Below are positions 1-56,876 of a DNA stretch of 64,000 nucleotides, piece by piece. Within the stretch, counting starts at the first letter, position 1, and every line of letters starts with the position of its first letter. A program made the translations under genes and the position numbers. This DNA is from Heterodontus francisci. Its lineage: Eukaryota. The notes under the pieces were generated by a model. That model was not told where the DNA came from. It saw only the letters and a program-made list of their open reading frames with translations, and searched no databases. The stretch lies in assembly GCF_036365525.1 (NCBI RefSeq), contig NC_090389.1:45426356-45490355 (forward strand), written 5' to 3'.

Positions 1-2015
1 AATGTATGATGGCATGAAGAGAGCTCTTGGGCCAACCATCAAGAAGATCACCCCCCTCAAATCTAAATCGGGGGACATAATCACTGACCAACGCAAACAG
101 ATGGACCGCTGGGTTGAGCACTACCTAGAACTGTACTCCAGGGAGAATGCTGTCACTGAGACTGCCCTCAATGCAGCCCAGCCTCCACCAGTCATGGATG
201 AGCTGGACATACAGCCAACCAAATCGGAACTCAGTGATGCCATTGATTCCCTAGCCAGCGGAAAAGCCCCTGGGAAGGACAGCATTACCCCTGAAATAAT
301 CAAGAGTGCCAAGCCTGCTATACTCTCAGCACTACATGAACTGCTATGCCTGTGCTGGGACGAGGGAGCAGTACCCCAGGACATGCGCGATGCCAACATC
401 ATCACCCTCTATAAAAACAAAGGTGACCGCGGTGACTGCAACAACTACCGTGGAATCTCCCTGCTCAGCATAGTGGGGAAAGTCTTTGCTCGAGTCGCTC
501 TGAACAGGCTCCAGAAGCTGGCCGAGCGCGTCTACCCTGAGGCACAGTGTGGCTTTCGTGCAGAGAGATCGACTATTGACATGCTGTTCTCCCTTCGTCA
601 GATACAGGAGAAATGCCGTGAACAGCAGATGCCCCTCTACATTGCTTTCATTGATCTCACCAAAGCCTTTGACCTCGTCAGCAGACGTGGTCTCTTCAGA
701 CTACTAGAAAAGATCGGATGTCCACCAAAGCTACTAAGTATCATCACCTCATTCCATGACAATATGAAAGGCACAATTCAACATGGTGGCTCCTCATCAG
801 AGCCCTTTCCTATCCTGAGTGGTGTGAAACAGGGCTGTGTTCTCGCACCCACACTTTTTGGGATTTTCTTCTCCCTGCTGCTTTCACATGCGTTCAAATC
901 CTCTGAAGAAGGAATTTTCCTCCACACAAGATCAGGGGGCAGGTTGTTCAACCTTGCCCGTCTAAGAGCGAAGTCCAAAGTACGGAAAGTCCTCATCAGA
1001 GAACTCCTCTTTGCTGACGATGCTGCTTTAACATCTCACACTGAAGAATGCCTGCAGAGTCTCATCGACAGGTTTGCGTCTGCCTGCAATGAATTTGGCC
1101 TAACCATCAGCCTCAAGAAAACGAACATCATGGGGCAGGATGTCAGAAATGCTCCATCCATCAATATTGGCGACCACGCTCTGGAAGTGGTTCAAGAGTT
1201 CACCTACCTAGGCTCAACTATCACCAGTAACCTGTCTCTAGATGCAGAAATCAACAAGCGCATGGGTAAGGCTTCCACTGCTATGTTCAGACTGGCCAAG
1301 AGAGTGTGGGAAAATGGCGCACTGACACGGAACACAAAAGTCCGAGTGTATCAGGCCTGTGTCCTCAGTACCTTGCTCTACGGCAGCGAGGCCTGGACAA
1401 CGTATGCCAGCCAAGAGCGACGTCTCAATTCATTCCATCTTCGCTGCCTTCGGAGAATACTTGGCATCAGGTGGCAGGACTATATCTCCAACACAGAAGT
1501 CCTTGAAGCGGCCAACATCCCCAGCTTATACACACTACTGAGTCAGCGGCGCTTGAGATGGCTTGGCCATGTGAGCCGCATGGAAGATGGCAGGATCCCC
1601 AAAGACACATTGTACAGCGAGCTCGCCACTGGTATCAGACCCACCGGCCGTCCATGTCTCCGTTATAAAGACGTCTGCAAACGCGACATGAAATCGTGTG
1701 ACATTGATCACAAGTCGTGGGAGTCAGTTGCCAGCATTCGCCAGAGCTGGCGGGCAGCCATAAAGACAGGGCTAAATTGTGGCGAGTCGAAGAGACTTAG
1801 TAGTTGGCAGGAAAAAAGACAGAGGCGCAAGGGGAGAGCCAACTGTCCAACAGCCCCAACAAACAAATTTCTCTGCAGCACCTGTGGAAGAGCCTGTTAC
1901 TCCAGAATTGGCCTTTATAGCCACTCCAGGCGCTGCTTCACAAACCACTGACCACCTCCAGGCGCGTATCCATTGTCTCTCGAGATAAGGAGGCCCAAAA
2001 GAAAAAAAGAAAGAA
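1..2015 (+). mobile_element. Young RTE/BovB-like LINE, 3' ~2 kb
   Basis: Intact ORF, short 3' UTR and A/G-rich tail (cccaaaagaaaaaaagaaag). The same 3' end recurs at 28.7, 46.6 and 62.4 kb. Confidence 0.93.
2..1951 (+). CDS. RTE-clade (BovB-like) LINE ORF: RT domain and C-terminal CCHC/C2H2-type finger; 5' part outside the window
   Basis: Uninterrupted 649-aa frame with non-LTR RT motifs KAPGKDSI, NYRGISLLS, QCGFR, FIDLTKAFD, GVKQGCVLAPTLF, LFADD, FTYLGS and a terminal CSTCGRACYSRIGLYSH. Confidence 0.95.
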   Translation: MYDGMKRALGPTIKKITPLKSKSGDIITDQRKQMDRWVEHYLELYSRENAVTETALNAAQPPPVMDELDIQPTKSELSDAIDSLASGKAPGKDSITPEIIKSAKPAILSALHELLCLCWDEGAVPQDMRDANIITLYKNKGDRGDCNNYRGISLLSIVGKVFARVALNRLQKLAERVYPEAQCGFRAERSTIDMLFSLRQIQEKCREQQMPLYIAFIDLTKAFDLVSRRGLFRLLEKIGCPPKLLSIITSFHDNMKGTIQHGGSSSEPFPILSGVKQGCVLAPTLFGIFFSLLLSHAFKSSEEGIFLHTRSGGRLFNLARLRAKSKVRKVLIRELLFADDAALTSHTEECLQSLIDRFASACNEFGLTISLKKTNIMGQDVRNAPSINIGDHALEVVQEFTYLGSTITSNLSLDAEINKRMGKASTAMFRLAKRVWENGALTRNTKVRVYQACVLSTLLYGSEAWTTYASQERRLNSFHLRCLRRILGIRWQDYISNTEVLEAANIPSLYTLLSQRRLRWLGHVSRMEDGRIPKDTLYSELATGIRPTGRPCLRYKDVCKRDMKSCDIDHKSWESVASIRQSWRAAIKTGLNCGESKRLSSWQEKRQRRKGRANCPTAPTNKFLCSTCGRACYSRIGLYSHSRRCFTNH

Positions 2016-4027: not shown

Positions 4028-4175
4028 CTAACAGCACTGTTGGTGTACCTACCCCACATGGACTGCAGCAGTTCAAGAAGGCAGCTCACCACCACCTTCT
4101 CAAGGGCAATTAGGGATGAGCAATAAATGCTGGCCTAGCCAGTGACGCCCACATCCCATGAACAAATAAATTTTT
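4028..4175 (+). mobile_element. CR1-Zenon-like LINE 3' tail
   Basis: ctaacagcactgt...ttcaagaaggcagctcaccaccaccttctcaagggcaattagggatg...cccacatcccatgaa. Confidence 0.8.
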
Positions 4176-5269
4176 AAAATCTGAAAGACCGATCTCATGG
4201 GTCAGTGGGCTAAGCTTTATAGAAGTAGGCTTTATAGAAACTAGGGCTCTTTTATCTTGAGAAAAGGTGATTAATATAGTTTACTTATATAAGTCATCCC
4301 TTAAACAGTGTAGAAAGGGTAAGCCTGGAGCATTTTTCCACAGTAAACCAAGAGTGTGCGATTAGGGGGCAGAGGTTCAAACTAGTGAAGGGCAAATTGA
4401 GGACTAATGTGAAGAACACTTGCAATACACTTTACAGAGAAACAAAAGGGAACTAAAATATGCCAACTGGCCATCCTTATTTGTATTCATCTTGTAAACA
4501 GAGACAGAAAGATGGGAATGGATTAGAGATGACAGAGGCTTTGAATATTTGCTGCCATATTTTGCCCATATCAGTTCCTCATAAATGCTGTATAAATGCT
4601 GTGGATATCTAGGTCACTGCTTTTAGTCATTTTCAGATATAAATAATATGGAACATTTTTCCCCATTTATGTTGGGAATAATCGTTTGTTAGGCTATTCT
4701 TGATGAAATTATAAACCTTCTGTCTAAAAATCACTGGGATTAACTTAGTGCGTAACCCAAGGGTAGTAGTCCTTAGCGATCTCTTTGAGCTAGTGCCTGC
4801 TTTGAAGTGTTGAAAAAAAGTGTACTGGTTGTGCGCTGCTTGTTGTCAAATGAATTGATTTATAAAAATGTTGTTATGGCATCTCAGCCAATTTCATACT
4901 GATGAAATTCCATATTGAATTTGATAATTAAGGTGCTAAAATGGTTGCATTTGATAGGTTTGCTTTCAATCCATTTCTGTCACCTGATCATGCTGCCTTT
5001 ATTTTACATCTGTTACATATCATACATTGATGTCTGAGCTGCATACATTTCCTTGTAATATTATTTTTCTGAGCTTTTTACTTCTCTTTTCCCGAGAACA
5101 CTAAATCATGCTGGGCTGTGTTCCATAAGTCTTGGCTGCTCTCCAATACCTCCCCAGGGTGACCATTCTTCAGCTACCTGGACAATAAAGCCCACATTTA
5201 CCAAACAATTTTGTGGTGGAAGTAACTGTGTTCTAAATCTGTCCAAATATGAACATACAAACATATGAA

Positions 5270-6304: not shown

Positions 6305-6870
6305 GAATTCATTCATAGGATGTGAGCGTCACCAGTGAGGCCAGCATTCATTGCCCATCCCTAATTGCCCTTGAGAAAGTGATGGTGAGCCACCTTCTTG
6401 AACCCTGCAGTCCAGGTCTGTCAGTATACCAGTAGCGCTATTAGTGAGGGAGTTCCAGGATTTTAACACAGCAACAATGAAGGAACAGCAATTTAATTTC
6501 AAGTCAAGATGGTGTGTGACTTAGAGGGGAATTTTCAGGTGGTGTTCTCATGCGTTTGTTGCCCTTGTCTTTCTAGGTGGTTGAGGTCGCAGTTTGGGAG
6601 GTACTGTTGAAGAAGCCTTGGCGAGTTGCTGCAGTGCATCTTATAGATGGTACACGCTTCTGCCACTCTGCGCTGGTGGTGGAGTGAGGGAGTGCTTAAG
6701 GTTGCCAATCAAGTGGCTGCTTTGTCCTGGATGGTGTTGAGCTTCTCGAGTGTTATTAGAGCTGCATTCATCCAGGCAAGTGGAGAGTATTCCATTACAT
6801 TCCTGACTTGTGCCTTGTAGATGATGGAAGACTTTTGGGAGTCAGGAGATGAATAACCCGGCACAGAATT
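6305..6870 (-). mobile_element. CR1-Zenon-like LINE 3' fragment
   Basis: Same tail and C-terminal coding region as 19808-21918. Confidence 0.85.
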
Positions 6871-6974
6871 CATATGTATGCATTGTTCATATGTAAATTA
6901 ACTGAACATATTGGAAATGCTGCAGTCCATACACAACTGGTGAAAAATGCACAAAATGGAGGTGAAGTGGATTT

Positions 6975-7865
6975 TTAAAAATTCTTTCATGGGATGTTGC
7001 ATCGCTGGCAAGGCCAGCATTTATTGCCCATCCCCAATTGCCCTTGAGAAGGTTGTGGTTATCCACCTTCTTGAACCGCTGCAGTCCATCTGGTGCAGGT
7101 ACTCCGACAGTGCTGTTAGGGAAGGAGTTCCAGGATTTTAATCCAGTGACAGTGAAGGAACAGTGGTATAGTTCCAAGTCAGGATGGTGTGTGGCTTTGA
7201 GGGGAACTTGAAGATAGTGATGCTCCCATATGTCTGCTGCCCTTGTCCTTCTAGGTGATAGAGATTGCAGGTTTGGAAGGTGCTGTCGAAGGAACTTTGG
7301 TGAGTTGCTGCAGTGCATCTTGTATATGGTGCACACTGCTGCCACTGTGCGTCAGTGGTAGAAGGAGTGAATGCTTTAAGTTGATGGATGGGGTGCTGAT
7401 CAAGCGGGCTGCTTTGTTCTGGATGTTGTCATGCTTCTTGAGTGTTTTTGGAGCCGCAGTCATCCAGGCAAATGGAGAGTATTCCATTACACTCCTGACT
7501 TTATGCCTTGTAGATGATGGACAGGCTTTGGGGAGTCAAAGTGAGTTACTCACCTCAGAATTCCCAGTCTCTGACCTGCTCTTGTAGCCATGGTATTTAT
7601 GTGACAGGTCCAGCTCAGTTTCTGGTCAATGGTAACCCCAGGATGTTGATAGTGGGGGATTCGGCGATGGTAATGCCGTTGAATGTCAAGGGAAGATGGT
7701 TAAATTTAAATCGTGTTGGAAATGGTCATTGCCTGGCACTTTTGTGGCATGACTTACTCTGTTACTTGCCATTTATCAGCCCAAGCCTGAATGTTGTCGA
7801 GGTCTCGCTGCATATGGACATGGGCTGCTTCACTACCTGAGGAGCTACAAATTGTACTGAACTTT
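6975..7865 (-). mobile_element. CR1-Zenon-like LINE 3' fragment
   Basis: MQRDLDNIQAWADKWQVT, MEYSPFAWMTAAPKTLKK, AAVCTIYKMHCSN and the family tail. Confidence 0.88.
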
Positions 7866-8120
7866 GAAATGGTAATGGAAGAGCAACTCCTGTGGTGCAA
7901 TGCATTGATCATTCTTGGTATGCAAGTTTTGAATTGGACCCAAAAGCTGGAAAGAGACAACTATGTCATAGGTTTGATGCAATTCCAACATAATTTAGTA
8001 TAATTGTGGATACTCTAGACTCTCACCCCTTATGAACTCGTAAGCAGAGATAATACCCTTACAATCAAATACGAAGAAACTTGAAGCCGGGTTCCAGATC
8101 GTGATTTAGAGTCATAGATT

Positions 8121-8517
8121 CTTTTTTTTTTATTTGTTCATGGGATGTGGGCGTCCCTGGCTAGGCCAACATTTATTGCCCATCGCTAATTGCCCTTGAA
8201 CTGAGTGGCTTACTAGGCCATTTCAGAGGGCATTGAAGAGTCAACCACATTGCTGTGGGTCTGGAGTCATATGTAGGCCAGGTATGATGGCAGATTTCCT
8301 TCTCTAAAGACATTAGTGAACCAGATGAGTTTTTACAACAATCAACAATGGTTTCATGATCACTATTAGACTAGCTTTTAATTCCAGATTTTTTTAATTA
8401 ATTGAATTCAAATTTCACCATCTGCCATGGTGGGATTCAAACCCATGTGCCCACAGCAATAGCCAGGGCCTCTGGATTACTAGTACAGTGACATTACCAC
8501 TATGCCACCACCTCCCC
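8121..8517 (-). mobile_element. tRNA-derived SINE with CR1-Zenon 3' tail
   Basis: Minus-strand head GGGGAGGTGGTGGCATAGTGGT (A box), GGTTTGAATCCC (B box); tail matches the Zenon LINE tail. Inserted in the tail of a CR1. Confidence 0.85.
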
Positions 8518-9212
8518 TGTATCGGCATAGAAGGAAGCTATTTGGCCCTTCGAGTCTATGCCAGCTCTCTGTGGAGCAATCCAGTCAGTCCCACTCCTCT
8601 GCTCAATCCCTGTAGCCCTGTAAATTTATTTCCTTCAAGCACCCATCCAATTTCTTTTTGAAATCATTGATTGTCGGCACTTCCACCTCCCTCATGGGCA
8701 GTGTATTCCAGGTCACTACCACTCACTGTGTAAAAAAAGTTCTTTCTCACATTTCCCCTGCATCTCTTGCCCAAAATCTTCAATTTGTGTCCCCTAGTCC
8801 TTGTACTATCAGTTAATGAGAACAGTTTTTCTTTGTCTTGTACACCTCTATCAAATCTCCACTCAATTTTATTTGCTCCAGGGAGAGCAACCCCAGCTTC
8901 TCCAACCTAATGTTGTAGCTAAAATCCCTCATCCTTGGTACGATTCTGGTAAATCTCCTCTGCACCCTCTCAAGGACCCTCACATCCTTCCAAAAGTGTG
9001 GTGACCAAAACTGGATATAATACTCTAGTTGGGGCCTAGCCAGAGGTTTGTAAAGATTCAGCACAACTTCCCTGCTTTTGTACTCGAGAGCACTATTTAT
9101 GAAGCCCAAGATCCCATAAGCTTTGCTAACCACTCTCTCAATATGTCCAGCCACTTTCAAAGATCGATACACACACACCCCTAGGTCCTTCTGTTCCTGC
9201 ACACTCTTTAGA
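8518..9212 (-). mobile_element. CR1 (HER1-like) LINE 3' fragment
   Basis: ORF 8813-9202: KDLGV...LYKPLARPQLEYYIQFWSPH...LERVQRRFTRIVP. Confidence 0.9.
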
Positions 9213-10369
9213 ATGCTTCAGAATTGTGGATAAGCTTTCCATCTCTTCTCTTCATACTGCCAGGGCTAGCACAGAAAGTCATCTAATGTGTGCTTGCTAT
9301 CCACGTAACTTTCTTACTTGTGTCCCTGTCCTCTTTCCTTAGGTTGGACAGACTTTGACATGATGAGGAAATCCCTGATTAAGAGGCATCATCACTGGAT
9401 TTTACATTGCGTACGCACCAGCTGTAAAACAGGCAGCCAGTACGATTGACACAGTGACTTAGTCAGGTGTGTTCGTTCTGAATGTCTATGGTGAAAGTGA
9501 AGAAGACATTTACTTTCTCTGGTAAGGTGTCAATCACCTGCTTGATACCTGCATAGACTGCAGATTGACTGATATTACTGATGTGCTCTGTGGCAATCTG
9601 GAAGGAACCAGTTCAGGACTACAGCAAACATTGTTGGTTACAGGTCATCTTCAAATCTTTCACTGACTCCATGAGAAAACCTAACTTTTTCATGTACAGC
9701 TCCTCATTTAAGCTTATCCTGTACAGTTGGTTTGGTGGTTCAAGTGCATCTTCTATCTACATCTTGACCTTCAAGTAGCACGACCCTCCCTCCCTCCCTT
9801 CCTTCCTTCCTCCCTCCCTTCTCCAAATAGAATTGGATTCCCAATGGCATCCAAGGAACAAGAGCTAATGCAGCTAAATCTTACTGCAAACTCCATTCGT
9901 GCACACAACCAATAATATTCAGTAAGTCACTTATAACATATCAAAAAATATTTATTCTTTTCTTGTAAATGTTACCTGGGTTCAGCTGTTCAACCATTTC
10001 AGTATCATTTGAGACTGCCATCTGACTTCAGCTACCCTTAGCTTGTGAGCAGGAATAGGAAGTTAAATTAAGAAGGTTCAAAGGTCATAGAACGGCATCA
10101 GGGTTGTAATGACATCATAACAGCCTCATTAAAAATTTCATGAAGCTTCTGCCTGTTTCAGACAGGAATATGCATGAAAATTAGGTGGGTCAAAAATTTG
10201 GTGAGAATTCCTGGCTGATTTCCTGGTCTTTGCCATTCCACTTATACTTAAAGTCAGGGCAGTAAGCAAAAGAAAATCTACCCTGTGGCTTGGGGCATTG
10301 GGACTTAAAGAAGCAAAGCATACTTACTAGCACCACAATCAGTTTGTTACAACTGGCAAACATTATTTG

Positions 10370-12234: not shown

Positions 12235-12733
12235 AGTTACAGTTCTGGTCGCCACTCTATAGGAAGGATGTGATTGCACTGGAGAGGGTGTAGAGGAAAT
12301 TCACCAGGATGTTGCCTGGGCTGGAGCATTTCAGCTATGAAGAGAGACTGGATAGGCTAGGGTTGTTTTTCTTAGAGCAGAGAAGGCTGAGGGGGGACCT
12401 GATTGAGGTATACAAAATTCTGAGGGGCATAGATAGGGTAGATAGGAAGTAACATTTTCCCTTAGCGGAGGTGTCAATAACCAGGGGGTATAGATTTAAG
12501 GTAAGGGGCAGGAGGTTTAGAGGGGATTTGAGGAAAAAAGTTTTCACCCAGAGGGTGGTTGGAATCTGGAACACATGCAGGAACCCTCACAACATTTAAG
12601 AAGTACTTAGATGAGCCTTAGTACTTAGTACTTTGAAACGCCACAGCATACAAGGCTATGGGCCAAGGTGCTTGATGGCTGGTGCGGACACGGTGGGCCA
12701 AAGGACCTGTTTCTGTGCTGTATAACTCTATGA
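12235..12733 (+). mobile_element. CR1 (HER1-like) LINE 3' end
   Basis: QFWSPLYRKDVIALERV... and tail gtgggccaaaggacctgtttctgtgctgtataactcta, shared with the V-SINEs. Confidence 0.9.
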
Positions 12734-13015: not shown

Positions 13016-13434
13016 TTTTTTTTACTCTTTAATGGGATATGGGCATCGTTGGCAACGCCAGCATTTATTGCCCATCCCTAATTCCCATTGACAACTGAGA
13101 GGCTTGCTAGGCCATTTCAGAGGGCAGTTAAGAGGCAACCACATTGCTGTGGATCTGGACTCACATGTAAGCCAGACCAGGTAAGGGCAGCAGATTTCCT
13201 TCCCTAAAGGCCATTTAAAGGCCATTAGTGAACCAGATGGGTTTTTATGACAAATGATGTTGTTTCATGGCACCATTACTGAGACTAACTTTCAATTCCA
13301 GATTTTTAAAAATGAATTAATTGAATTTAAATTCCAGCAGCTGACATGGGATTTGAACCTGTGTCCCCAGGGCATTAGCCTGGGCCTCTGAATTACTAGT
13401 TCAGTGGCATTACCACTACACCACCACCTCCCCC
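13016..13434 (-). mobile_element. tRNA-derived SINE with CR1-Zenon tail (same family as 8121-8517)
   Basis: A box TGGTGTAGTGGT, B box GGTTCAAATCCC, same body and tail. Confidence 0.85.
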
Positions 13435-13584: not shown

Positions 13585-14395
13585 TGGCATCTGTGGACAG
13601 AAAAGCAGAGTTAATGTTTCAGGTTGATGACCTTTCATCAGAGCTGGCAAAGATTAGAAATGTAATACTTTTTAACCAAGTGAAAAGTGGGGGGGGGAAG
13701 AAGAACAAGAAGGAAGGCCTGCGATAGGATGGAGGGCAGAAGACATTAAATAGCAATAGGTTTCATGGTGCAAAGCCAAGTGAAGAAACAAAAGATGTGT
13801 CTGAATGAGATGTAGATGACAGTATAGCAGCCATCCAAACGCAAAGTAAAGCGATTAATAAAGAAACAGGGGGAGGGGGGTGTGGGGGGGGAACCTGCAA
13901 AAAAAAATGAGAAAAGGAAAAAAAAGGGGGCAGAGTTTATGATCTAAAATTGTTGAACTCAGTGTTGAGTCTGGTAGGCTGTAAAGTGCACAGTCCAATG
14001 ATGAGGGCCTATTCCTCAAGTTTGCATTCAACTTCATTGGAACACTGTAGCAGGCTAAGGGCAGAAAGGTCAGAATGGGAGTAAGGTGGGGTGGAAGGTG
14101 AGGGGGACCTTATCATGGTTTTGGGAGAGAGGGGAAGGTGTGAAATAGACTGGATACAAACGAGGGCCCTGTCAACCACGGTTTGGGGGTGGGGGGGTGG
14201 AATTCCTTGATTGAGGAAAAGGGAAGATATATCGGAAGCACTAGTATGGAAGGTTGCAACAGAGACAGAGAAAATAGGAGAATGGAATCAAGTCCTTGCA
14301 GGAAGTAGGGGTGTGAGGAAGTGTAGCCCAGGTAGATGTAGTCCGTGGGCTTATCGTGAATTTTGGTTGATAGCTTTTCCCCAGAAATGGAGACT
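13585..14395 (-). mobile_element. Penelope-like element fragment (RT C-terminus and 3' end with decayed hammerhead), inverted arm
   Basis: Minus-strand HPTSCKDLIPFS motif; 13940-14090 mirrors 14925-15060; ctgatgaaaggtcatcaacctgaaacattaactc at ~13608-13642. Confidence 0.8.
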
Positions 14396-15462
14396 GACCT
14401 ATTTCACGGACTTCTGCTTTCACCCCTTTTCCTCCCTCCCAGAGACATGATAGGATTCCCCTTGTCCTCACCTTCCACCCCACCAGCCTCTGTATTCAAC
14501 GGATCATCCTCCGCCCTTTCCACCACCTCCAGCGTGATACCACCACCAAACACATCTTCCCCTCCCCTCCCATTTCAGCATTCCAAAGGGATCATTCCCT
14601 CCATGACACCCTGGACCACTCCTCAGTTACCCCCAAAACCCCTCCCTCTCCTAGGGCATGTTTCTATGCAAGCACAGGAGATGAACACCTGCCCTTTTAC
14701 CTCCTCCCTTCTCACCATCCAAGGCACCAAACTCTCCTTCCAAGTGAAACAGCAATTTATTTGTACTTCTTTCAATTTAGTATACTGTATTCACTGCCCG
14801 CAATGTGGTCTCTACACTGGGGAGACTAAACGCAGACTAGGTGACTGCTTTGCAGAACACCTCCGTTTAGTCTGCAAGTGCAACCCTGAGCTTCCTGTCA
14901 TTTGTCATTTTAATTTTCCACATTACTCCCATTCTGACTTTTCTGTCCTTGGCCTGCTACAGTGTTCCAATGAAGCTCAACACAAGCTCCAGGAATAGAC
15001 CTCATCTTACAACTGGACACTTTACAGCCTTCCGGACTCAACACTGAGTTCAACAATTTTTGATAATAACCTCTGCTCCCATTTTCCCCCATTTTTTTTA
15101 GTCTTTTTGTGGGTTCCTCCCCCTTGTTTCTTTCATATCCCCTTAACTTTGTGTTCGTAAGGCTACTGTACTGTCATCTACACCTCATCCCGACACATCT
15201 TTTGTTTCTTGACTTGGTTTTGTGTTTTTGATTCATGAAACCTGTTGTCATTTATTGTCTTCTGCCCTCCACCCTTTCACAGACCTTCTTTTTTGCTCTT
15301 CTTCCCACCCCTGCCCCCTATTCACTTGCTCAAAGTCTATTACATTTCTAATTTTTGCCATTTCTGGTGAAAAGTCACAGACCTGAAAGGTTAACTCTGC
15401 TTTTCTCTCTACAGATGTTGCCTGACCTGCTGAGTATTTCCAACATTTTCTGTTTGTGTTTT
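14396..15462 (+). mobile_element. Penelope-like element 3' part with GIY-YIG endonuclease remnant
   Basis: FICTSFNLVYCIHCPQCGLYTGETKRRLGDCFAEH...CHFN in ORF 14363-14998; terminal decayed hammerhead at 15362-15397. Confidence 0.88.
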
Positions 15463-15589
15463 AGAATTGTAATGTTCAGTCGTCATTGTATACCAAGTGA
15501 AATTACAAAGAATTTGTGAATTTTACAAATATGTTTTCAATACAGTGTACTGGCAAATTATTCTCACTTATCTTCAGGGAAAATGTTTT

Positions 15590-16843
15590 TAAAAAATTAT
15601 TCATTCATGGGATGTGGGCATCGCTGGCTATGCCAACATTTATTGCCCATCCCTAATTGCCCTTGAGAAGGTGGTGGTGAGCCGCCTTCTTGAACTGCTG
15701 CAGTCCATGTGAGGTAAGTACACTCACAGTGCTGTTAGGAAAGGAGTTCCAGAATTTTGGCCCAACGACAGTGAGGGAACGGCAATATAGTTCCAAGTCA
15801 GGATGGCGTGTGACTTGGAGGGGAGCTTGGTGGTGTTCCCAGGCATCTGCTGCCCTTGTCCTTCTAGGAGGTAAAGGTCACGGGTTTGGAAGGTGCTGTC
15901 CAAGGACCCTTGGTGCGTTGCTACAGTGCATCTTGTAGCTGGTACACACAGCTGCTACTGTGTGTCGGTGGTGGAGGGAATGAATGTTTGTGGATAGGAT
16001 GCCCTCTAATCCTTCTACCAATCACCTTAAATCTGTTCCCCTGGTAATTGACCTCTCCACTAGGGGAAACAGGTCCTTCCTGTCTCATCCTCAATGATGC
16101 CAGAGTCCAGCACATCAGTGCAAAAGATAAGGCTGAAGCATTTGCAAAAATCAGTAGGTGGCAATCTGCAGGAAGTTTCCTTGCCCATGTTTGGCCTGAT
16201 GCCATGAGACATCATGGGGTCTGGAGACAATACTGAGGACTTCCAGAGCAACTCCCTCACGCCTGTATACCACTGCCGCCACCTCTGCTGGGTCTGTCCT
16301 GCCGGTGGGACAGGACATACGCAGGAATGGTGATGGCAGTGTCTGGGACATTGGCTGTGACGTCTGAATCCGGAAGTATGACTATATCAGCTGTTGCTTG
16401 ACTAGTCTGTGGGACAGCTCTCCCCACTTTGGCACAAGCCCCCAGATGTTAGTAAGGAGGACTTTACAGGGTCAGCCATTGTCGTTTTCTGTACCTGGGT
16501 TGATCCGTCTGGTTTCACTCCTTATTGATTTTGTAGCAGTTTGATACAACTGAGTGGCTTGCTAGGCATTTCAGAGTCAACCACGTTGTTGTGGGTCTGG
16601 AGTCACATGTAGACCGAACCAGGAAAAGACAGCAGATTTCCTTCCCTAAAGGACATTAGTGAACCAGATTTTTTTTTTAAATGACAATTGTTTCACAGTC
16701 ATCACTCGACTAGCTTTTAATTCCAGATTTATTAATTGAACTTAAATTCCACCTTCTACTATGGTGGGATTTGAACCCACGCCCCCAGAACAATCCCCTG
16801 GGTTATTAGTCCAGTGACAATACCACTACACCACCACTTCCCC
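15590..16843 (-). mobile_element. Internally deleted CR1-Zenon-like LINE with a tRNA-derived head directly upstream of the APE endonuclease
   Basis: Head 16549-16843 (A box 16822-16833, B box 16766-16777). APE N-terminus VLLTNIWGLVPK...ELSHRLVKQQ...VSWHQAKHGQGNFL at ~16150-16470. Tail at 15590-15995. Small CR1 piece at ~16000-16080. Confidence 0.8.
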
Positions 16844-18542
16844 TTGAGCATCATTTTATTTTCTTATTTCATCTCCCTTTCCTGTTCGAGAAGAGGTTTC
16901 ATCGTCATATATCCATCAGATTAATGCCTGTAGGTAGAATTGGCATTCTGACAGTCTCCTATTTAACTTTGCCACTGCGCTGACCTCTTTTTATGACTCC
17001 TTTCTTCCTTATGACTGCATCTGGTCATAGATTTACTGCTTCAGTCCTGCAATTATAACCCCAGTTGTTATTGGTACTGTATAAATCTTCAGTTTTATGT
17101 AGAGCTTCATCAGTTGGTTTTCACAAGCATTTCTTTACACTCATTACTTGGTCCATGGTGATATTTTTACAAGTTTCATTAGAGGACTATCCATCTCGGA
17201 CACTGATGCTCATTTAAGAGTTGCCTTGATATGTCATGTTCATTCAGATTTTCTGCATTGCTCTTATTTCAAAGTGTTAAGTGGCAAAGCCAACATAGTT
17301 GCTTTTATGACTCTTTTATACTTCTTATGACTAGTAAGTGAAATGTCAAGTGGCCTGATGTGTGTACGTTCCATGTCTAAATTTACGACATTTTTATAAT
17401 GGTCATTTTCCATAACATTGAATTGTAAATTGGATACAAAATTTGTGTATTTGTTGCAAACCCCGATCTTTTATACCTTGGTAAAATCAGCCAAAACTTT
17501 ATAATTAATGGGCCATGTGACTGGAAATTAATTCAATATAGCTTACATCAATATTGTAAGCTAAATAAATAGACTGAACATACCATCAAATCACATGACC
17601 AAAAATGGGCAAATCAGTTTGATGAATTTGTTAGAAGATAAATTGCTGATTAAAAAGAATACAAGTCACCTTTACCGATCAATTTGCTCATCTAGAAAAT
17701 GATTCCTCACATTTAATAGCTGAGCAATGACTTATATTTCCAGCTGAATGCAAATCAAAGGAAAGCAACAAAGCTCCTACATATTATATTTTGCAATACT
17801 TAAATAGGACTTTAATCAGGTAGGTTCAATGGAATTATATAAGCTCATGCCAGAAGCTCAATCATGTAAAAAAGTTAAATGGATTTAATTAGCGTTTATA
17901 TATGCAAGTATTGAAACAAAATAAAGAACATAGCCAAAAAACTAATCGAAACAGGCACGTACATTGGACTGAGTTATTTTTTCCTGCATGGGTTATGTAG
18001 TTAGAGATCTATGTGAAAGATAGTGCACTAATGCCATCTACTGTCCTCAGAATCAATACTGAGAACAGTTACAAGATTTCTTACTGTTCCTGATATGATC
18101 CAAGAATAGATCAAACCACAAATGACAGCAGTTTAACAGTATTTTCAGGTCAATCACATAGATTTGAGTCATTTTCTTTATTTTTTCTGCATAGCTTTTT
18201 TGTTTCCAAATGAAACACATCACTGAAATGACCAATTAATTAAATTGCTTTACATTCTTATATATTTGTATTCAATGTTATTAGATTCTGACTACATTGT
18301 GTTGCTAGTGTTTATATTGTTTTGCAATTCTTATTGTATTGTCCTCTCTGGCTGACGCATCTATGACTACACTGATAACTCATGCTATTGCTCACTATGC
18401 AATCTCCCTTAAGTAGTACAGAGACCTTTCATTGATGCATTATCTACCAGTACCTCAGTTTAAGTAGTCATGGCCAAAGTGTCCTCTGTCCCTACATTAT
18501 TGCTGGTGGAAGAATATTCTGGTGACAACTAATGCACTAGAT

Positions 18543-19781
18543 TGTTACGACCAGGTGAGGAAGGGGCCTCAGGCGCACCTTTCGCCCCTTCTCTGGTTTG
18601 ACTGCAACAGGGTTTATCTTTTTAACACAATGATTTAACTTACCACCTCAGTGAGCACTTGCTCCTGTTCCTCTAATATATAATGGCAAATGTACCAATC
18701 AGAGAGGTATTCTTGTGTTTAAACTAGAATTAACCCTAACACTCTAAACTGATTAAAAATTACTAAAATACGCTATGCATCCATGCCCACATTCTCACAA
18801 GAGCCACACATACACACAAATAGATTACAGAGGGAAAAACAGAGTTGGGAGGTTTAGTTTAGTTTAGAGATACAGCACTGAAACAGGCCCTTCGGCCCAC
18901 CGAGTCTGTGCCAACCATCAACCACCCATTTATACTAATCCTACACTAATCCCATATTCCTACCAAACATCCCCACCTGTCTCTATATTTCCCTACCACC
19001 TACCTATACTAGTGGCAATTTATAATGGCCAATTTACCTACCAACCTGCAAGTCTTTTGGCTTGTTGAAGTAAAGTCCGTAATAAATTGAACTTAAATAC
19101 TGAGTCTCAGTGTCTTTAGGTGAAATTGCAGTCCTGAAGTCCTCGCTGGGCCATGTGCACAGTTCGGGCTTGCTCCTCAGGTTCCAGAAGGCAGAAGAAG
19201 GGCTTTATTCATATTCCCTGGTTGTTGACTGTAAGGATCTGTAGATTTGAGGCTTGGTAGATGCAGCCAAAGCTTCCCTGGGACTTTACTGGAGAGGGGG
19301 AGGCAGAGATGCCTTCTTGCTGGATCTCAGTTACCGACTGACTCCTGAGTCACCACTCACAAATCTCCAGAGTGGCCCAAGCAGTCATGTGATGTGACCA
19401 CCTCTTTGTCTGAAATGGAAGCTTCTGGAAAAAGATCTTTGAAATTTAAGGTTCTCCTCGCAAGCTGTTCAAACATACTTGGTAGGGGGGGTTTGGCTCT
19501 TTCAAAGTCAATGGGTGTCAATGGCTTTTGACAACCCCCATTGATAAAGCTATCCCAGATAAGTGAATCAGAGAGCACACCATTGTTCTGGCTAAACTGG
19601 ATAATCACCTCTGCCTCCATCTGGCCTTTGGCTTCTCATGTGCAAATTGTGTGTGGCCATCTTGGCTGCTCACTATTCTGTTTTTTAAAAGTTATTTGGA
19701 ACAATCTCTGTAAAAGTCTCAGGCAAAGTTCCACATGATGAAATGAATATTTTCCATTTGGCATGTGGGATCCTCGTCACA
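18543..19781. mobile_element. Solo LTR
   Basis: TGTTACGACC...GTCACA termini; 4-bp TSD AGAT (18539-18542, 19782-19785); ends similar to 56877-57811. Confidence 0.88.
18852..19062 (-). mobile_element. 5'-truncated V-SINE (HE1-like) inside the solo LTR
   Basis: (tttag)n tail then agatacagcactgaaacaggcccttcggcccaccgag; matches 22340-22660. Confidence 0.85.
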
Positions 19782-19807: not shown

Positions 19808-21918
19808 TTTTTTTTTATTCATTCAGGGGTGTGGGCATCACTGACTAGGCCAGCATTTATTGCCCATCTCTCATTGCCCTTGAGAAGGTGGTGGTGAGCT
19901 GCCTTCTTGAACCGCTGCAGTCCATTTGGGGTAGGTATACCCACAGTGCTGTTAGGAAGGGAGTTCCAGGATTTTGACCCAGTGACAGTGAAGGAACAGC
20001 GATATAGTTCCAAGTCAGGATGGTGTGTGACTTGGAGGGGAACTTGCAGGTGGTGGTGTTCCCATGCATTTGCTGCCCTTGTCCTTCTAGTTGGTAGAGG
20101 TCACGGGTTTGGAAGGTGCTGTCTAAGGAGCGTGGTGCATTGCTGTAGTGCATCTTGTAGATGGTACACACTGATGCCACTGTGCGTCTGTGGTGAAGGG
20201 AGTGAATGTTTGTAGATGGGGTGCCAATCAAGCGGGCTGCTTTGTCCTGGATGGTATCGAGCTTCTTGAGTGTTGTTGGAGCTACACCGATCCAGGCAAG
20301 TGGAGAGTATTCCATCACACTCCTGACTTGTGCATTGTAGATGGTGGACAGGCTTTGGGGAGTCAGGAGATGAGTTACTCGCCTCAGGATTCCTAGCCTC
20401 TGACCTGCTCTTGGTATTTATATGGCTACTCCAGTTCAGTTTCTGGTCAATGGTAGCCCCTAGGCTGTTGATAGTGGGGGATTCAGTGATGGTAATGCCA
20501 TTGAATGTCAAGGGGAGATGGTTAGATTCTCTCTTGTTGGAGATGGTCATTGCCTGGCATTTGTGTGGCGCGAATGTTACTTGCCACTTATCAGCCCAAG
20601 CCTGGATATTTTCCAGGTCTTGCTGCATTTCTACACCGACTGCTTCAGTATCCGAGGAGTCACAAATGGTGCTGAACATTGTGCAAACATCAGCGAACAT
20701 CCCCACTTCTGACCTTATGATTGAAGGTAGGTCGTTGATGAAGCAGCTGAAGATGGTTGGGCCTAGGACACTACCCTGAGAAACTCCTGCAGTGATGTCC
20801 TGGAGCTCAGATGATTGACCTCCAACAACCACAACCATCTTCCTTTGCGCTAGGTATGACTCCAGCCAGCGGAGGGTTTCCCCCTGATTCCCATTGACCT
20901 CAGTTTTGCTAGGGCTCCTTGATGCCATACTTGGTCAAATGCTGCCTTGATGTCAAGGGCAGTCACTCTCACCTCACCTCTTGAGATCAGCTCTTTTGTC
21001 CATGTTTGAACCAAGGCTGCAATGAGGTCAGGAGCTGAGTGGCCCTGGCGGAACCCAAAATGAGCGTCACTGAGCAGGTTATTGCTAAGCAAGTGCCGCT
21101 TGATGGCACTGTTGATGACACCTTCCATTACTTTACTGATGATTGAGAGTAGGCTGTTGGGGCGGTAATTGGCCGGGTTGGACTTGTCCTGCTTTTTGTG
21201 TACAGGACATACCTGGGCAATTTTCCACATTGCTGGGTAGATGCCAGTGTTGTAGCTGTACTGGAACAGCTTGGCTAGGGGCGTGGCAAGTTCTGGAGCA
21301 CAAGTCTTCAGTACTATTGCCGGAATGTTGTCAGGGCCCATAGCTTTTGCAGTATCCAGTGCCTTCAGTCGTTTCTTGATATTGGCTGAAGTCTGGCATC
21401 TGTGATGCTGGGGACTTCAGGAGGAGGCCGAGATGGATCATCAACTCGGCACTTCTGGCTGAAGATTGTTGCAAATGCTTCAGCCTTGTCTTTCGCACTG
21501 TTGTGCTGGGCTCCCCCATCATTGAGGATGGGGATATTTGTGGAGCCACCTCCTCCAGTTAGTTGTTTAATTGTCCACCACCATTCACGGCTGGATGTGG
21601 CTGGACTGCAGAGCTTAGGTCTGATCCGTTGGTTATGGGATCGCTTAGCTCTGTCTATCGCTTGCTGCTTACACAGTTTGGCACGCAGATAGTCCTGTGT
21701 TGTAGCTTCACCAGGTTGCCAACTCATTTTGAGGTATGCCTAGTGCTGCTCCTGGCATGCCCTCCTGCACTCTTCATTGAACCAGGGTTGGTCTCCTGGC
21801 TTGATGGTAATGGTAGAGTGGGGGATATGCCAGGCCATGAGGTTACAGATTGTGGTTGAGTACAATTCTGCTGCTGCTGATGGCCCACGGCGCCTCATGG
21901 ATGCCCAGTTTTGCATTG
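19808..21918 (-). mobile_element. CR1-Zenon-like LINE, 5'-truncated, frameshifted RT
   Basis: GPDNIPAIVLKTCAPELA, NPANYRP, ALDIKAAFD, GVSQGSVLGP, MFADV, MEYSPLAW. Confidence 0.92.
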
Positions 21919-22099
21919 CATATGTCTACTTCCTCATCAATAGACCACCGGCTATTTGTTCCACATTATCTGCTTTAACTTTAAAAGAAGACAACAGGAT
22001 GTTGATTTTCTATAAGGAATGGACAGCGAAAGGCCGCGAATATCTTTTTTTATAACATCCAATGTTCTCCCTTTCTCTTTTAGTGAAATTTCAAAATAT

Positions 22100-23090
22100 A
22101 AATCATAAAATCATAGAATTTTACAGCAGAGAAGGAGGCCATTCAGAAGAAGTTTTGAACGAGCTACTCCCCTGCACTTTTCCCATTGCCCTGAAATGTT
22201 CTGCCCTTCAAGTTTTTATTCAATTCTCTTTTGAAAGTTATAGTTGAACCTGCTTCCCCTACTTTTCAGGCAATGCATTCCAGATCAGTATAACTATCTG
22301 CATAAAAAGATTTCTCCTCATCTGACCCTGGCTCTTTTGACAGTGGCACAGTGGTTAGCACCGCAGCCTCACAGCTCCAGGGACCCGAGTTCAATTCTGG
22401 ATACTGCCTGTGTGGAGTTTGTAAGTTCTCCCTGTGACCGTGTGGGTTTTAGCCGGGTGATCCAGTTTCCTCCCACCGCCAAAGACTTGCAGGTGATAGG
22501 TAAATTGGCCATTGTAAATTGCCCCTAGTGTAGGTAGGTGGTGGGGAATATGGGATTTCTGTAGGGTTAGTATAAATGGGTGGTTGTTGGTTGGCACAGA
22601 CTCGGTGGGCCGAAGGGCCTGTTTCAGTGCTGTATCTCTAAATAAAAAAAATAAATAAATCTCTGTCCTCTGGTTATCAACCCTTCTGCCACTGGATATA
22701 GTTTCTCCCTACTTACTCTATCAAACCCTTCAAAATTTTGAACACCTCCATTAAATTGCCCCTTAACCTTTTCTGCTCTAAGGATAACAATCCCGGTATT
22801 TCCAGTTTCTCCACATAACTGAAATCCCTCATCCCTGGTACTATTCTAATATGTTTCCTCTGCACACTCTCCAAGGCCTTTCTAAAATATGGTGCCAACA
22901 TTTAGGCACAATACTCCAACAGAGATGCAACCAGTGATTTATAAAGCTTCACCATAACTTCTTTGTTAATAGCCTTATCAACTTGGCCTGCCACCTTCAA
23001 AGATTTCGGTACACAAATCCCCACGTATTTCTTCAAAATAGAACTGTTTATTTTATATTGTCTCACCTCATTCTTTCTTGTCACTTTTCT
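22100..23090 (-). mobile_element. CR1 LINE 3' fragment interrupted by a V-SINE
   Basis: ALESVQRKHIRIVPGMRDFSYVEKLE; LYKSLVASLLEYC. Confidence 0.8.
22340..22660 (+). mobile_element. V-SINE (HE1-like)
   Basis: A box gtggcacagtggtt, B box gagttcaattct, V-domain ctgtgtggagtttg...tttcctccca, CR1 tail gggccgaagggcctgtttcagtgctgtatctcta, A-rich end. Confidence 0.9.
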
Positions 23091-28655: not shown

Positions 28656-29632
28656 AATTGTTATATTATTATGAACCATAATTACAATCTTGGCATCAGG
28701 TGGCAGGACTATATCTCCAACACAGAAGTCCTTGAAGCGGCCAACATCCCCAGCTTGTACACACTACTGAGTCAGAGGCGCTTGAGATGGCTTGGCCATG
28801 TGAGCCGCATGGAAGATGGCAGGATCCCCAAAGACACATTGTACAGCGAGCTCGCCACTGGTATCAGACCCACCGGCCGTCCATGTCTCCGTTATAAAGA
28901 CGTCTGCAAACGCGACATGAAATCGTGTGACATTGATCACAAGTCGTGGGAGTCAGTTGCCAGCATTCGCCAGAGCTGGCGGGCAGCCATAAAGACAGGG
29001 CTAAATTGTGGCGAGTCGAAGAGACTTAGTAGTTGGCAGGAAAAAAGACAGAGGCGCAAGGGGAGAGCCAACTGTGCAACAGCCCCAACAAACAAATTTC
29101 TCTGCAGCACCTGTGGAAGAGCCTGTCACTCCAGAATTGGCCTTTATAGCCACTCCAGGCGCTGCTTCACAAACCACTGACCACCTCCAGGCGCGTATCC
29201 ATTGTCTCTCGAGATAAGGAGGCCCAAAAGAAAGAATTACAATCATAGTTTTTACACTTCCATTAAAAGTAGAGGGGATTTTATAAATCATGAAATGAGC
29301 TTTTGTAGATCCACAGTACTTGCTGAAAACATATTTTAAGAAATTCAATGTATTCATTACAAATAGCACTCCTTGCTTCTCTGGAAGAACATTCAGTTCA
29401 TAGTCTGAAAGTTTGATGAATCTGTTGAACATCTGGAATTCAAACACTAGAGTGATAGCAGAGGTGTTCAAGAAGGGTAATTATATTTACGTTAGGTTGG
29501 TTCCTAAATGTTGTGGAGGATTCATTTATTCATATTGCTAAAAAGATTCTTTAGCAATGCCAATGGTTGTCAGCAGTGGTTATCTAATCCAGTTTAAGAT
29601 TTAAGATTATGGTTCATAATAATATAACAATT
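28656..29632. repeat. Perfect 27-bp inverted repeat pair (28656-28682 / 29606-29632)
   Basis: aattgttatattattatgaaccataat and its exact reverse complement attatggttcataataatataacaatt. Confidence 0.9.
28690..29234 (+). mobile_element. 5'-truncated young RTE LINE copy
   Basis: Nearly identical to 1461-2005; 10-bp TSD aattacaatc (28680-28689, 29235-29244). Confidence 0.95.
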
Positions 29633-30560: not shown

Positions 30561-30662
30561 ACATACTTACATTGCTGTGTCCCAGTGTCCTGTGAAGTTG
30601 CGATCCTCTTCTCTCACACAAGTGTAACATTCCTTCTTGTAGGCATGCCGCACCTGGGTGAA

Positions 30663-31330
30663 TTTTTTTAAAAATTCATTCATGGAATGTGGGCATAGCT
30701 GGCCAGGCCAGCATTTATTGCCCATCCCTAATTGGCCTTGAGAAGGTGGTGGTGAGCTGCCTTCTTGAACTGCTGCAGTCCATGGGAGGTAGGTATACCC
30801 ACAGTGCTGTTAGGAAGGGAGTTCCAGGATTTTGACCCAGCGACAGTGAAGGAACGGCGATATAGTTCTAAGTCAGTGTGACTTGGAGGGGAAGTTGCAG
30901 GCGGTGGTGTTCCCATGCATTTGCTGCCCTTGTCCTACTAGTTGGTAGAGGTCGCGGGTTTGGAAGGTGCTGTTTAAGGAGCCTTGGTGCGTTGCTGCAG
31001 TGCATCTTGTAGATGGTACACACTGCTGCCACTGTGCATTGGTGGTGAAGGGAGTGAATGTTTGTGGATGGGGTAATAATCAAGCGGGCTGCTTTATCCT
31101 GGCTGGTGTCGAGCTTCTTGAGTGTTGTTGGAGCTGCACCCATCCAGGCAAGTGGAGAGTATTCCATCACACTCCTGAGTTTCTGCCTTGGAGATGGTGA
31201 ACAGGCTTTGGGGAGTTAGGAGGTGAGATGCTCGCCGTAGGATTCCTAGCGTCTGACCTGCTGTTGTAGCCACGGTATTTATATGGCTACTCCAGTTCAG
31301 TTTCTGGTCAATGGTAGCCCCTAGGATGTA
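30663..31330 (-). mobile_element. CR1-Zenon-like LINE 3' fragment
   Basis: ILGATIDQKLNWSSHIN, MEYSPLAWMGAAP and tail. Confidence 0.9.
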
Positions 31331-31899
31331 CATTTGCACATTCCAGGACGTGAGACTTAAATAGACCAGAAAAGGTATTACAGAGGTTTACAGAGAACAC
31401 ACTGAAACAAATGGGTATACATGGATGTCGCAGCAATGTAAATACGTCTTTCTCCAAATGTTCCTCACCAACATGTGTGTCCTTTTCTCTGTGTGAATGA
31501 TGTGTGCCAACATGAAGTACCGATGTCACATCCCGCAGCACCATTGGCCTTTCAGGAGAGCCAACATATTCAATAACATCATTGCCATGCCACCATTACT
31601 CATGAGCGTCTCCACGGATGCAGTGCCCTGGACATAGGCTCAGTCAGCTGCTGCCTCTAATGGTTTACACAGGGATGCTGCAGATGTGGACTGGTGCACA
31701 GCAGGTGAGCGAGGGTGATGTGTGACTTGCAGAGCTCATGTCGGTTCCTATGGTGCAGAGAGCCTTTGTCTGATAAGTCACTTCCGTACATCCCTACCTC
31801 ACTGCTAGCCCTGCGTGCAGAGCCTGGGTGCCATCTGCCCTCCCACGCGTCTTTCATATTGTAGGTCCTCAGTGTCCTCATAGTCCGAGGAGGAATCCT

Positions 31900-33845
31900 G
31901 TTGCCGTCTCTCCTCATCATGCCAGGCCTGGTCCTTATTGGGTGCTTAGTTGTGCAGAGCAGCAAAGAAAGGAGTTGGTCTTTTTGGCCTATCCATCCAG
32001 GCATTGGAGGCGCTCTTTCAGCATGCCAATCTCCTGCTCAGTGGTGGCTCATGTAGCTCAGTGGCTGGTGTTGCATCTCTCCTTTGCAGAAGAGGTGGAG
32101 TCTCTCACTGGTGTCAGAAGCCATGTCTGCAAAGGATAGCCCTTATCTCCAAGATGCCACCCCTCCATCTGAGCCAGTTCAGTGAACAGCGGTGGCAGCC
32201 GGGACTGGCACAAGACCCAGGTGTCATGGCAGCTGTCTGAGAAGCGGTCACACATTCGCTGCAAGCATCTGCGGTGTTCACATACCAGCTTCACCCAGAT
32301 TGAGAGGTCTCCTTTAATGGTGAAGTCTGTAGGTGGTAGCCTGGCAGTAGGCCTGATGGCACATGAGTGCAGTTTATGAACATTACAACCTATGGTTCTC
32401 CGGCAATGGTGCCAGAACCAATGGCCCTCTGGGTCTGGCTGTGAGAGTCTGCCCTGAAGCGGCCATCCTCCGGTGCAGGGCATTGGTGACCTCCCTATTG
32501 CAGTGATGCATTGCTGACTGTGTGACCCCACAAATGTCTCTGGTGGGCCCCTAAAAGGCTGCAGAGGCGTCAGGCTTGAGAACCGCTGCCACTTTTTAAA
32601 AATATTCATTCATGGAATGTGGGCGGAGCTGGCCAGGCCAGCATTTATTGCCCATCCCTCATTGCCCTTGAGAAGGTGGTGGTGAGCTGCCTTCTTGAAC
32701 CGCTGCAGTCCATTTGGGGTAGGTATACCCACAGTGCTGTTAGGAAGGGAGTTCCAGGATTTTGACCCAGCGACAGTGAAGGAACAGCGATATAGTTCCA
32801 AGTCAGGATGGTGTGTGACTTGGAGGGGAACTTGCAGGTGGTGGTGTTCCCATGTATTTGCTGCCCTTGTCCTTCTAGTTGGTAGAAGTCGCGGGTTTGG
32901 AAGGTGCTCTCTAAGGAGCCTTGGTGCATTGCTGTAGTGCATCTTGTAGATGGTACACACTGCTACCACTGTGCGTCGGTGGTGGAGGGAGTGAATGTTT
33001 GTAGATGGGGTGCCAATCAAGCAGGTTGCTTTGTCCTGGATGGTGTCGAGCTTCTTGAGCGTTGTTGGAGCTGCACCCATCCAGGCAAGTGGAGAGTATT
33101 CCATCACACTCTTGACTTGTGCCTTGTAGATGGTGGACAGATTTTGGGGAGTCAGGAGGTGAGTTACTCACCTCAGGATTCCTAGCCTCTGACCTGCTGT
33201 TGTAGCCACGGTATTTATATGGCTACTCCAGTTCAGTTTCTGGTCAATGGTAGCCCCTAGGATGTTGATAGTGGGGGATTCAGCGATGGTAATGCCATTG
33301 AATGTCAAGGGGAGATGGTTAGATTCTCTCTTGTTGGAGATGGTCACTGCCTGGCACTTGTGTGGCGCGAATGTTATTATGAGGAACAAAGGCATGGGAT
33401 GTCCACCAGAGCCCATGAGCTGCAGGTCTTCCTTGAGCAGGGCACAGAGACGTTTCACCAACCTCTCTATATGTGCAACCTCCTCTGACACTGGTGCTCT
33501 GACATCCGATGGCATGTCATGTTGGGCCTGTAGATGCACGGCAAACGTAGTGGAGAGCTCCCCTTGGGGGCTGCTGCTCACAACCGGGGGCCTCTACATG
33601 GATCGCATCTGCCTGTTGGTATTGACTCTGGCGCATACGGATCTTCACGAGCAGAGGATCACACAATGTAGGATGAGCCATACCTATTTCCATGTGATAA
33701 ATAAAGTTGAACCCTGCACGTATTCAAAGGTTCCTAACAGGGCAGGGATTGGTGTTGACGAGTATATCAGCTGCTTTCCTGGATCAACTATGTGGCGTGC
33801 CATGGTATTGTCCATCTTGGCCAACACTCAGAGTGGCACAGCATG
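31900..33845 (-). pseudogene. Harbinger (HARBI1-like DDE) transposase remnant split by a Zenon LINE
   Basis: LCALLKEDLQLMGSGGHPMPL (33380-33450) continues as KVAAVLK below 32592; GWHLGDKGYPLQTWLLTPVR...RCNTSH (32060-32165). Confidence 0.85.
32592..33377 (-). mobile_element. CR1-Zenon-like LINE 3' fragment
   Basis: TFAPHKCQAVTISNKRESNH through to the tail. Confidence 0.9.
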
Positions 33846-36559: not shown

Positions 36560-37524
36560 TGAGTCTGCAAGTCCTGTCATGCAGTCGGCCACCACTTCCA
36601 TGCAGGAAGCGGTCCAGGCAGCATAACCATTGTTTCAGGACGGTAATGGTCTGCTTCACAACGTTCCTAGTTTCAGCATGGCTCGCATTGTATGAGCGCT
36701 GTCTATGTGTGATCAGGTGGTGAAGTGGAGTCATTAGCCACATGTAGAGTGGATAGCCCTTATCACCTAGCAACGAGCCTCTGGTTTGACGTGACGGCTC
36801 AAAGATGGCAGGAACTGCAGACTGATGCAGGATGAAAACATTGTGACTGTGGCCAGGACAGCAGGCACTAACCAGCATGATGTTCTGAATGTGGCCACAC
36901 ACCAACTGTACTTAGAATGAGTGGTAACCCTTGTGGTCTTTGTACATTTCCCCATTGAGATGCAGCGCTCGGAAGACCATGCGCGCGTAGTTCATGACTC
37001 CCTGCACCATAGGAAAGCCTGCTATCCTGGCAAAGCCACATGCTCATTCCTGCTGCTTCTCTCTGTTTCGAGAGAAGACACTGAAGTCCCCCTCTCCTGG
37101 TGTACAGGATCTCTGTGACCTCTCGGATACAGTGATGCATGGCGAACTGTGAGATGTTAGCAATGTTGCATGTTCCAGCCTGGAAGGATCCTCTGGTATA
37201 GAAATTGAGGGCCCCAGTCACCTTGAAACCCACTGGTAGAGCCGTCCTTGTCCCGCTCTGAGGCTGCAGATTTGGGTTGAGGAAATGGCCACAGTGCTGT
37301 GACCACCTCCTCGGTGAAGTGCAGCCACCGAATGAACTACTCTTGGCTAAGGTGCAGGTAGGAAAAATGCTTTCTGAAGACACTAGGCTGGTACATCCTC
37401 CTGCTGAGAGCCCTCCTCCTCCTCCCTCAGGGAACAGCTTGTCTTCTCTGCTGCCTCTGCTCCAGTTCCCTGTGATTCTACAGCACAAGGGAACTGCAAC
37501 AATAGTCCTCATGTCTGGGAGCAA
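36560..37524 (-). pseudogene. Second Harbinger transposase remnant
   Basis: LPVGFKVTGALNFYTRGSFQ...ISQFAMHHCIREVT; LLGDKGYPL...YNASHAETRNVVKQTITVLKQ. Confidence 0.88.
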
Positions 37525-56290: not shown

Positions 56291-56299
56291 CCCATCATA

Positions 56300-56872: not shown

Positions 56873-56876
56873 TAAT

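Follow-up and report, generated by a model that had tools for sequence, protein, structure and literature searches.

A tRNA-like head at the 5' end of elasmobranch Zenon LINEs, shared with head-to-tail SINEs of Heterodontus francisci

A tRNA-like head is, with hardly any doubt, the true 5' end of the Zenon LINE family of elasmobranchs. It opens a LINE copy of Heterodontus francisci at positions 15590-16843 of the window (the whole stretch of 64,000 nucleotides analysed, to which all coordinates refer) and is found again in two SINEs of the same window. The architecture is real and family-wide and, for a known LINE family, apparently undescribed. The LINE is assigned, as a probable member, to Zenon (CR1 group) from its 5' identity with published Zenon consensus sequences and from the 43-58% identity of the window LINE to full-length RT relatives.

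The promoter is the usual mark that separates SINEs from LINEs: non-coding SINEs have Pol III heads, coding LINEs have Pol II UTRs. This split becomes less sharp with a vertebrate LINE family that spans several species and has a SINE-type head, and shark repeat annotation will miscount such LINE 5' ends as SINEs. The arrangement also raises a question that can be addressed in cell culture, namely whether a long Pol III transcript is translated into reverse transcriptase.

The headed copy and the 5' end of the family

Read on the minus strand, the copy starts with the head (16548..16843), a 5' unit common to LINE and SINEs that was delimited by alignments and consists of a tRNA-like part of ~85 bp followed by a body of ~210 bp in which no known domain was found. 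A motif pattern identifies a Pol III A box (TGGTGTAGTGG, 16823..16833, minus strand) and B box (GGTTCAAATCC, 16767..16777, minus strand). The combined A and B box pattern has three matches in the window, in this copy and in both SINEs, and none in any of 100 shuffles. A LINE-specific linker of ~85 bp follows (16463..16547, minus strand), shortened here by small deletions and with GTG at the AUG position. The N-terminal third of the APE endonuclease, ~310 bp and frameshifted (16153..16462, minus strand), begins after the linker with the first APE motif (VLLTNIWGLVPK) at 16462. It was recognised by profile matches and by tblastn with P0019, P0022, P0025 and P0026. The profile, built from four full-length relatives, matches with positions 19-71 at 16430-16269 (iE 2e-6) and with positions 6-31 at 16468-16391 (iE 0.05), in two frames overall; the four short APE pieces were not recognised by Pfam. 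The succession of A/B-boxed head, linker and APE start proposed in the initial annotation is confirmed by the box pattern, the alignments and the APE profile.

Beyond the endonuclease the copy holds an inverted 67-bp stretch that derives from a more internal part of the same LINE (16086..16152, plus strand; 88% to 21464-21530), an 88-bp piece of a different CR1-type LINE (15999..16085, minus strand; 77% to 12440-12527) and, as recognised by sequence comparison, ~410 bp of the Zenon 3' end (15590..16003, minus strand) with the end of the ORF, a ~55-bp 3' UTR and the A-rich tail. About 2.2 kb including the RT are missing, judged by consensus length, and deletion, inversion, frameshifts and stops leave no intact APE-RT ORF. 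The copy had been taken for an autonomous LINE; with its deletion, its inversion, a foreign CR1 piece and the RT gone, it is instead a dead, rearranged relic of 1.25 kb. These breaks are not typical of the family: at 16086 and at 16147-16154, thousands of reads of run X24 depart from the alignment and run on into different sequence. No convincing TSD was found around the relic or uniting its head and tail: the best exact repeat (relic 5 nt, SINEs 6 nt) never directly adjoins the ends, and truncated copies likewise yield 4-6 nt.

ARAGORN called both SINE heads tRNA-like and made no tRNA call for the head of the more decayed relic, where Rfam matched the T-arm alone (E 0.12). The relic's head folds no better than shuffles (z -0.65). 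A three-sequence consensus fold hints that the two ends of the head pair, with 2 of 85 pairs covarying, and is not relied on.

The window contains no other headed LINE. A 2.1-kb Zenon copy with an RT domain (19808..21925, minus strand; RVT_1, E 1e-14 and 9e-13) lacks the head because it is 5'-truncated; APE is thus represented by the profile match in the relic and RT by RVT_1 in this sister copy. Seven more 5'-truncated fragments of the Zenon 3' region lie at 4028-4179, 6307-6874, 6972-7866, 30661-31375, 32593-33376, 35240-35338 and 37913-38206. The longer ones are ~73-94% alike in pairwise comparison, which suggests a long period of activity. The A-rich tail is present in Zenon copies and is interrupted by T-rich stretches in some of them.

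Several other repeats surround these copies. The LINE at 35-2015 (plus strand), which we take to be RTE-like and which serves below as control for T runs, has an unbroken frame of ~620 aa and further copies at 28689-29236 and 46569-47685; since its copies are 95-99% alike, it was recently active. Reading frames at 32058-32609, 36450-37533 and 50744-51639 look to us like decayed pieces of a Harbinger-type transposase, and 54639-61172 (minus strand) is presumably the broken pol of a gypsy-like LTR retrotransposon with RT-, RNase H- and integrase-like frames. An inverted fragment pair at 13588-15417, 77% alike and with a GIY-YIG-like peptide, is assumed to be probably of Penelope type. Other short repeats, at 22340-22655 and 18858-19068, are inserted in a CR1-type fragment, and one of them presumably resembles a V-SINE such as HE1. 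The window is rich in repeats, and these match published shark and ray families.

The supplement of PMC13343379 provides 10 vertebrate Zenon consensus sequences, which are compared here over the first 400 nt of each. All seven from elasmobranchs (2.9-3.3 kb) open, by eye, with tRNA-like head, body and linker. They come from five shark and ray species (white shark, whale shark, catshark, spiny dogfish with three, and stingray), and in the stingray and dogfish-3 consensus sequences the first 400 nt extend to the first APE motif. A- and B-like boxes are seen by eye at the extreme 5' end in the five species, degenerate in some. When the ~1,003 rows of the consensus table are searched (first 400 nt per row), one exact head motif is present in six, all elasmobranch Zenon, and a second in seven, six Zenon and one unrelated L2. 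The two hagfish and the single coelacanth Zenon consensus sequences do not start with the head (0/3), which marks it as acquired and derived; with an endonuclease coverage of 39%, the coelacanth consensus may lack part of its 5' end, and this weakens the outgroup. Denominators in Table S3 of the same work for three elasmobranch Zenon families (2313, 1419 and 612 copies) indicate that the families hold many copies. The published consensus sequences were lengthened by software, a step that SINE copies could have biased, but the shared linker argues against this.

Individual loci and read data were also inspected. An HMMER search with the APE piece gave 14 matches, 10 of which were examined, the four long ones (P0018, P0027, P0029 and P0031) being left out. 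In the whale-shark gene model P0022 the last codons of the head read through the linker into APE, and in P0026, possibly a spliced model, head-body sequence is joined to the end of the linker and APE. In run X1 the contig depths add up to 0-8 in the flanks and to between 2e4 and 7e6 over 15552-16877, linker included, which shows repetition and not copy number; the element boundary defined by run depth coincides with the tRNA start. No contig piece bridges 16548 to 16462 among the 24 listed of ~173,000. The junction of head, linker and APE, claimed at first to be the 5' end of a LINE family, is borne out beyond this locus by seven of seven consensus sequences in five species and by P0022 and P0026. 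Only ~380 nt stand upstream of APE in the relic and in the consensus sequences. The absence of ORF1 had been correctly noted, though, like the poly-A tail, it is already published for all Zenon elements.

Transcription and translation of the LINE

The candidate role of the A and B boxes is to have the LINE RNA made by Pol III, a proposal from sequence whose chances are about even. They would then form an internal promoter carried inside each full-length copy, which is held with the same even confidence. On its sense strand, the sister copy (2,111 nt) lacks T5 runs and has T4 in one place only. This single T4 run is to be compared with 1.2 expected by dinucleotide shuffle (P 0.67) and 2.4 by a codon null (P 0.26), neither difference being significant; it is probably a private mutation, since it falls at a codon where the relative P0001 has Q, not H. 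T3+ runs number 6 against 12.9 expected by a synonymous-codon null (P 0.009, one of several tests) and, more weakly, against 9.3 by a codon-permutation null (P 0.08), while the RTE control is not depleted (14 against 17.6, P 0.19). T4 runs per kb of sense strand amount to 0.5 in Zenon versus ~6 in older CR1 fragments and 1.5 in RTE, a comparison confounded by age and T content. The T-run counts are compatible with read-through by Pol III, no more.

A rather unlikely alternative accepts the head as 5' end but sees it as a passenger, or as a Pol II promoter or IRES-like 5' UTR, the LINE mRNA being made by Pol II (its own or by read-through) and the A and B boxes mattering for the SINE only. It agrees with the general assumption that LINEs are Pol II transcripts (Kojima 2018, PMC5786205) and with the lack of significant T4 depletion. 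Long transcripts also look rare: in two runs guessed to be RNA, depth over the head body (16572-16673) exceeds that over the endonuclease start (16419-16469) ~25-fold, versus a ratio of ~0.7 in the DNA run, although these RNA-guessed runs are contigs in which strand and start are not readable, so that depth is a poor measure and no evidence of expression. The RNA may stem mainly from copies that are short and of SINE type, or embedded. Against this alternative stand the persistence of the boxes at the extreme 5' end in five species, some of them degenerate and all read by eye, the coincidence of element boundary and tRNA start, and the low density of T4 runs with its confounders of age and T content.

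The few sequences at hand make an unconventional start of translation likely, since the AUG conserved upstream of the endonuclease seems to lie in another frame. The linker AUG is kept, by eye, in six of the seven elasmobranch consensus sequences. In that of the stingray the first APE codon follows 80 nt after it and in another frame, the APE frame having no upstream AUG of its own. P0022 keeps the same spacing between the basic stretch of the linker and APE, its AUG being linked only via a local insertion; P0026 has an in-frame spacing, unlike the stingray consensus and P0022. The frame offset is thus taken from one consensus read by eye and from P0022. No large indel at the linker/APE site is seen among the rows listed for the reads. 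Translation would start by frameshift, reinitiation or a cap-independent route, and for the single-ORF LINE R2 cap-independent translation has been proposed (PMC12203849). A bolder version, which we put forward only tentatively, is that no in-frame AUG is used in translating the LINE RNA, the 300-nt head serving at the same time as a structure that recruits ribosomes, and that this LINE gave a SINE by one deletion and persisted in sharks and rays.

SINEs composed of head and LINE tail

The two SINEs, both on the minus strand, share the head of the LINE and have it fused to the LINE's last ~70 bp, with tail identities of 91% and 85%, in agreement with what had been annotated. The SINE at 8121..8518 has the CAGTT/CAAGGG join type, its joint connecting 15665 and 16548 of the relic, and the one at 13016..13433 the CAGTTGT/CAA join type, with the joint at 15665 and 16546. 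Their tails comprise the four last codons of the LINE and its 3' UTR. Their heads align with that of the relic at 86.6% and 86.8%; the three heads, 86.5-86.8% alike over ~290-310 ungapped columns, diverge just past CCACTCAGTT at 16548. At most 2 nt of the SINE are foreign to either LINE end, and a short CAA/TCAA match flanks both sides of the break. The joint of 15665 to 16546/16548 is present in four of four runs, in 8 + 6 contigs of X1, six reads of X24 that come from two starts, six contigs of X21 and two contigs of X15, X1 and X21 being one sample. Both joint types of the runs correspond to the two SINEs of the window. With an A/B-boxed tRNA-like head, the tail of a LINE partner and multiple copies, both are tRNA-derived SINEs (SINE2).

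Joints of low support with other breakpoints were also observed (16474-16803, 15685-16547, 15694-16628 and 15700-16565), for instance one of the head with a tail extended by 20 nt; each could be an additional, independent deletion derivative or an artefact of alignment. A CR1-type fragment (8525-9217) has the SINE at 8121-8525 at its 3' end, where the SINE seems to interrupt the fragment's terminal repeat-like sequence.

Identity with SacSINE1 or the DeuSINEs was rejected. The elements bear no likeness to Deu by eye and give no match to one 17-nt Deu core motif at three mismatches; as the body has no Deu-domain match they are not filed as SacSINE1, from which they are set apart by the Deu alignment and this one motif. 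The motifs searched in the body do not point to UCON3 or to SINE domains of bivalves, and no link of the nurse-shark NSRE1/2 to the element was found.

The initial annotation had presented the SINE as a head-and-tail deletion of the LINE. The join stands as observed, in every run and with next to no foreign sequence; for its direction we infer, with good probability, an internal deletion of the LINE. Capture of a finished SINE by the LINE needs a switch exactly at the border of body and tail, and deletion is therefore the simpler reading.

Such a capture, in which an ordinary tRNA-SINE with Zenon tail came first and the LINE took over its head and body by template switching, is improbable. Zenon tails do serve tRNA-SINEs in bivalves and ZenoSINEs in butterflies, module exchange among SINEs is common, and the sister vertebrate Zenons without head speak for an acquired head. 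The switch must nevertheless fall within ~2 nt of the body/tail border of a body of ~210 nt, for which the chance is roughly estimated at ~2%. An older SINE with a different tail as donor of the head would fit the explanation preferred here.

That explanation, a tRNA-headed Zenon LINE with internal promoter, a SINE born by one deletion and unconventional translation, is as a whole somewhat favoured. The elasmobranch Zenon LINE is an element of ~3.3 kb with one APE-RT reading frame, an A-rich tail and the tRNA-derived head as its 5' end. A single gain of the head, in the common ancestor of sharks and rays or earlier, is probable; the RT would have jumped template onto the RNA of a tRNA or tRNA-SINE, and for R2 such jumps have been documented with tRNA and U12 as targets (PMC3414825). 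One internal deletion would have brought the last four codons and the 3' UTR directly behind the 296-nt head. Promoter and RT-recognition tail would be left intact, yielding a ready-made SINE copied in trans by the LINE.

That a SINE merely inserted beside a LINE fragment, or recombined with it, at one locus has virtually no chance of being correct: the relic is heavily rearranged, without TSD and the only headed LINE of the window, but the order of head and linker in seven consensus sequences of five species and at two whale-shark loci already contradicts it, and the linker is highly repeated.

Comparison with known systems

The elasmobranch Zenon LINEs reported in PMC13343379 (CarCar, RhiTyp, ScyCan, SquAca and HypSab_Zenon) have the same 5' 400 nt, no ORF1, an A-rich tail and a length of ~3.3 kb, and are the same family. 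The main text of that work gives no match for tRNA, promoter or polymerase and one for 'sine', the head standing unremarked in its supplement. The whale-shark preprint, in the text covered, has no match for tRNA, and the full-text literature searched, a scope outside which lie most subscription journals, Repbase and Dfam, yielded no description of a tRNA-headed shark LINE. PMC11481361, PMC7245038, PMC4824008, PMC2746220, PMC1513397 and PMC6685494 were drawn on as well.

Pattern matches at 30 viral, metagenome and prokaryote loci were all dismissed as chance, the best longer match having 31 nt and an E of 2.9. No relatives of P0002 were found in viral contigs, and when the 63-aa APE piece was used in a word-index search of proteins, none of 63 candidates passed at E 0.01.

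The tRNA-derived SINEs of sharks, SacSINE1/DeuSINEs and the V-SINE HE1 (PMC5499810, PMC3747384), have LINE-type tails like the Zenon SINEs. The tail of SacSINE1 is of L2 type and HE1 pairs with HER1, whereas the SINEs of the window have a Zenon tail and no Deu core was found in them.

The initial suggestion that this origin reverses the usual picture of SINEs is too strong, since SINE bodies that derive from deleted LINEs have already been described in the RTE and Vingi clades (PMC5786205). The Zenon case offers a one-step SINE route and a visible origin for a SINE body, an origin called enigmatic by Kojima 2018 (PMC5786205). The bipartite non-autonomous LINEs of RTE, Vingi, Ingi and R2 described there are likewise short elements made from the 5' and 3' ends of a LINE. 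In those elements the tRNA head was added after the deletion, while in Zenon the autonomous LINE is already headed, and the CR1/Zenon clade is absent from the clades that the cited text of PMC5786205 lists as making bipartite elements. The same paper mentions RTE-1_DAn and relatives, LINEs with a tRNA-like sequence that matches many SINE2 elements, a likeness to the Zenon head. The matches were taken as accidental and removed, position and function are not given in that text, and the clade differs from Zenon.

Further parallels are offered by R2. Its template jumps put tRNA or U12 at the 5' end of the LINE and its internal-deletion derivatives (R2 SIDEs) exist, as here (PMC3414825), and translation of the uncapped RNA of this single-ORF LINE has been proposed (PMC12203849). 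The tRNA-headed junctions of R2 are single cases, whereas those of Zenon belong to a multi-species family.
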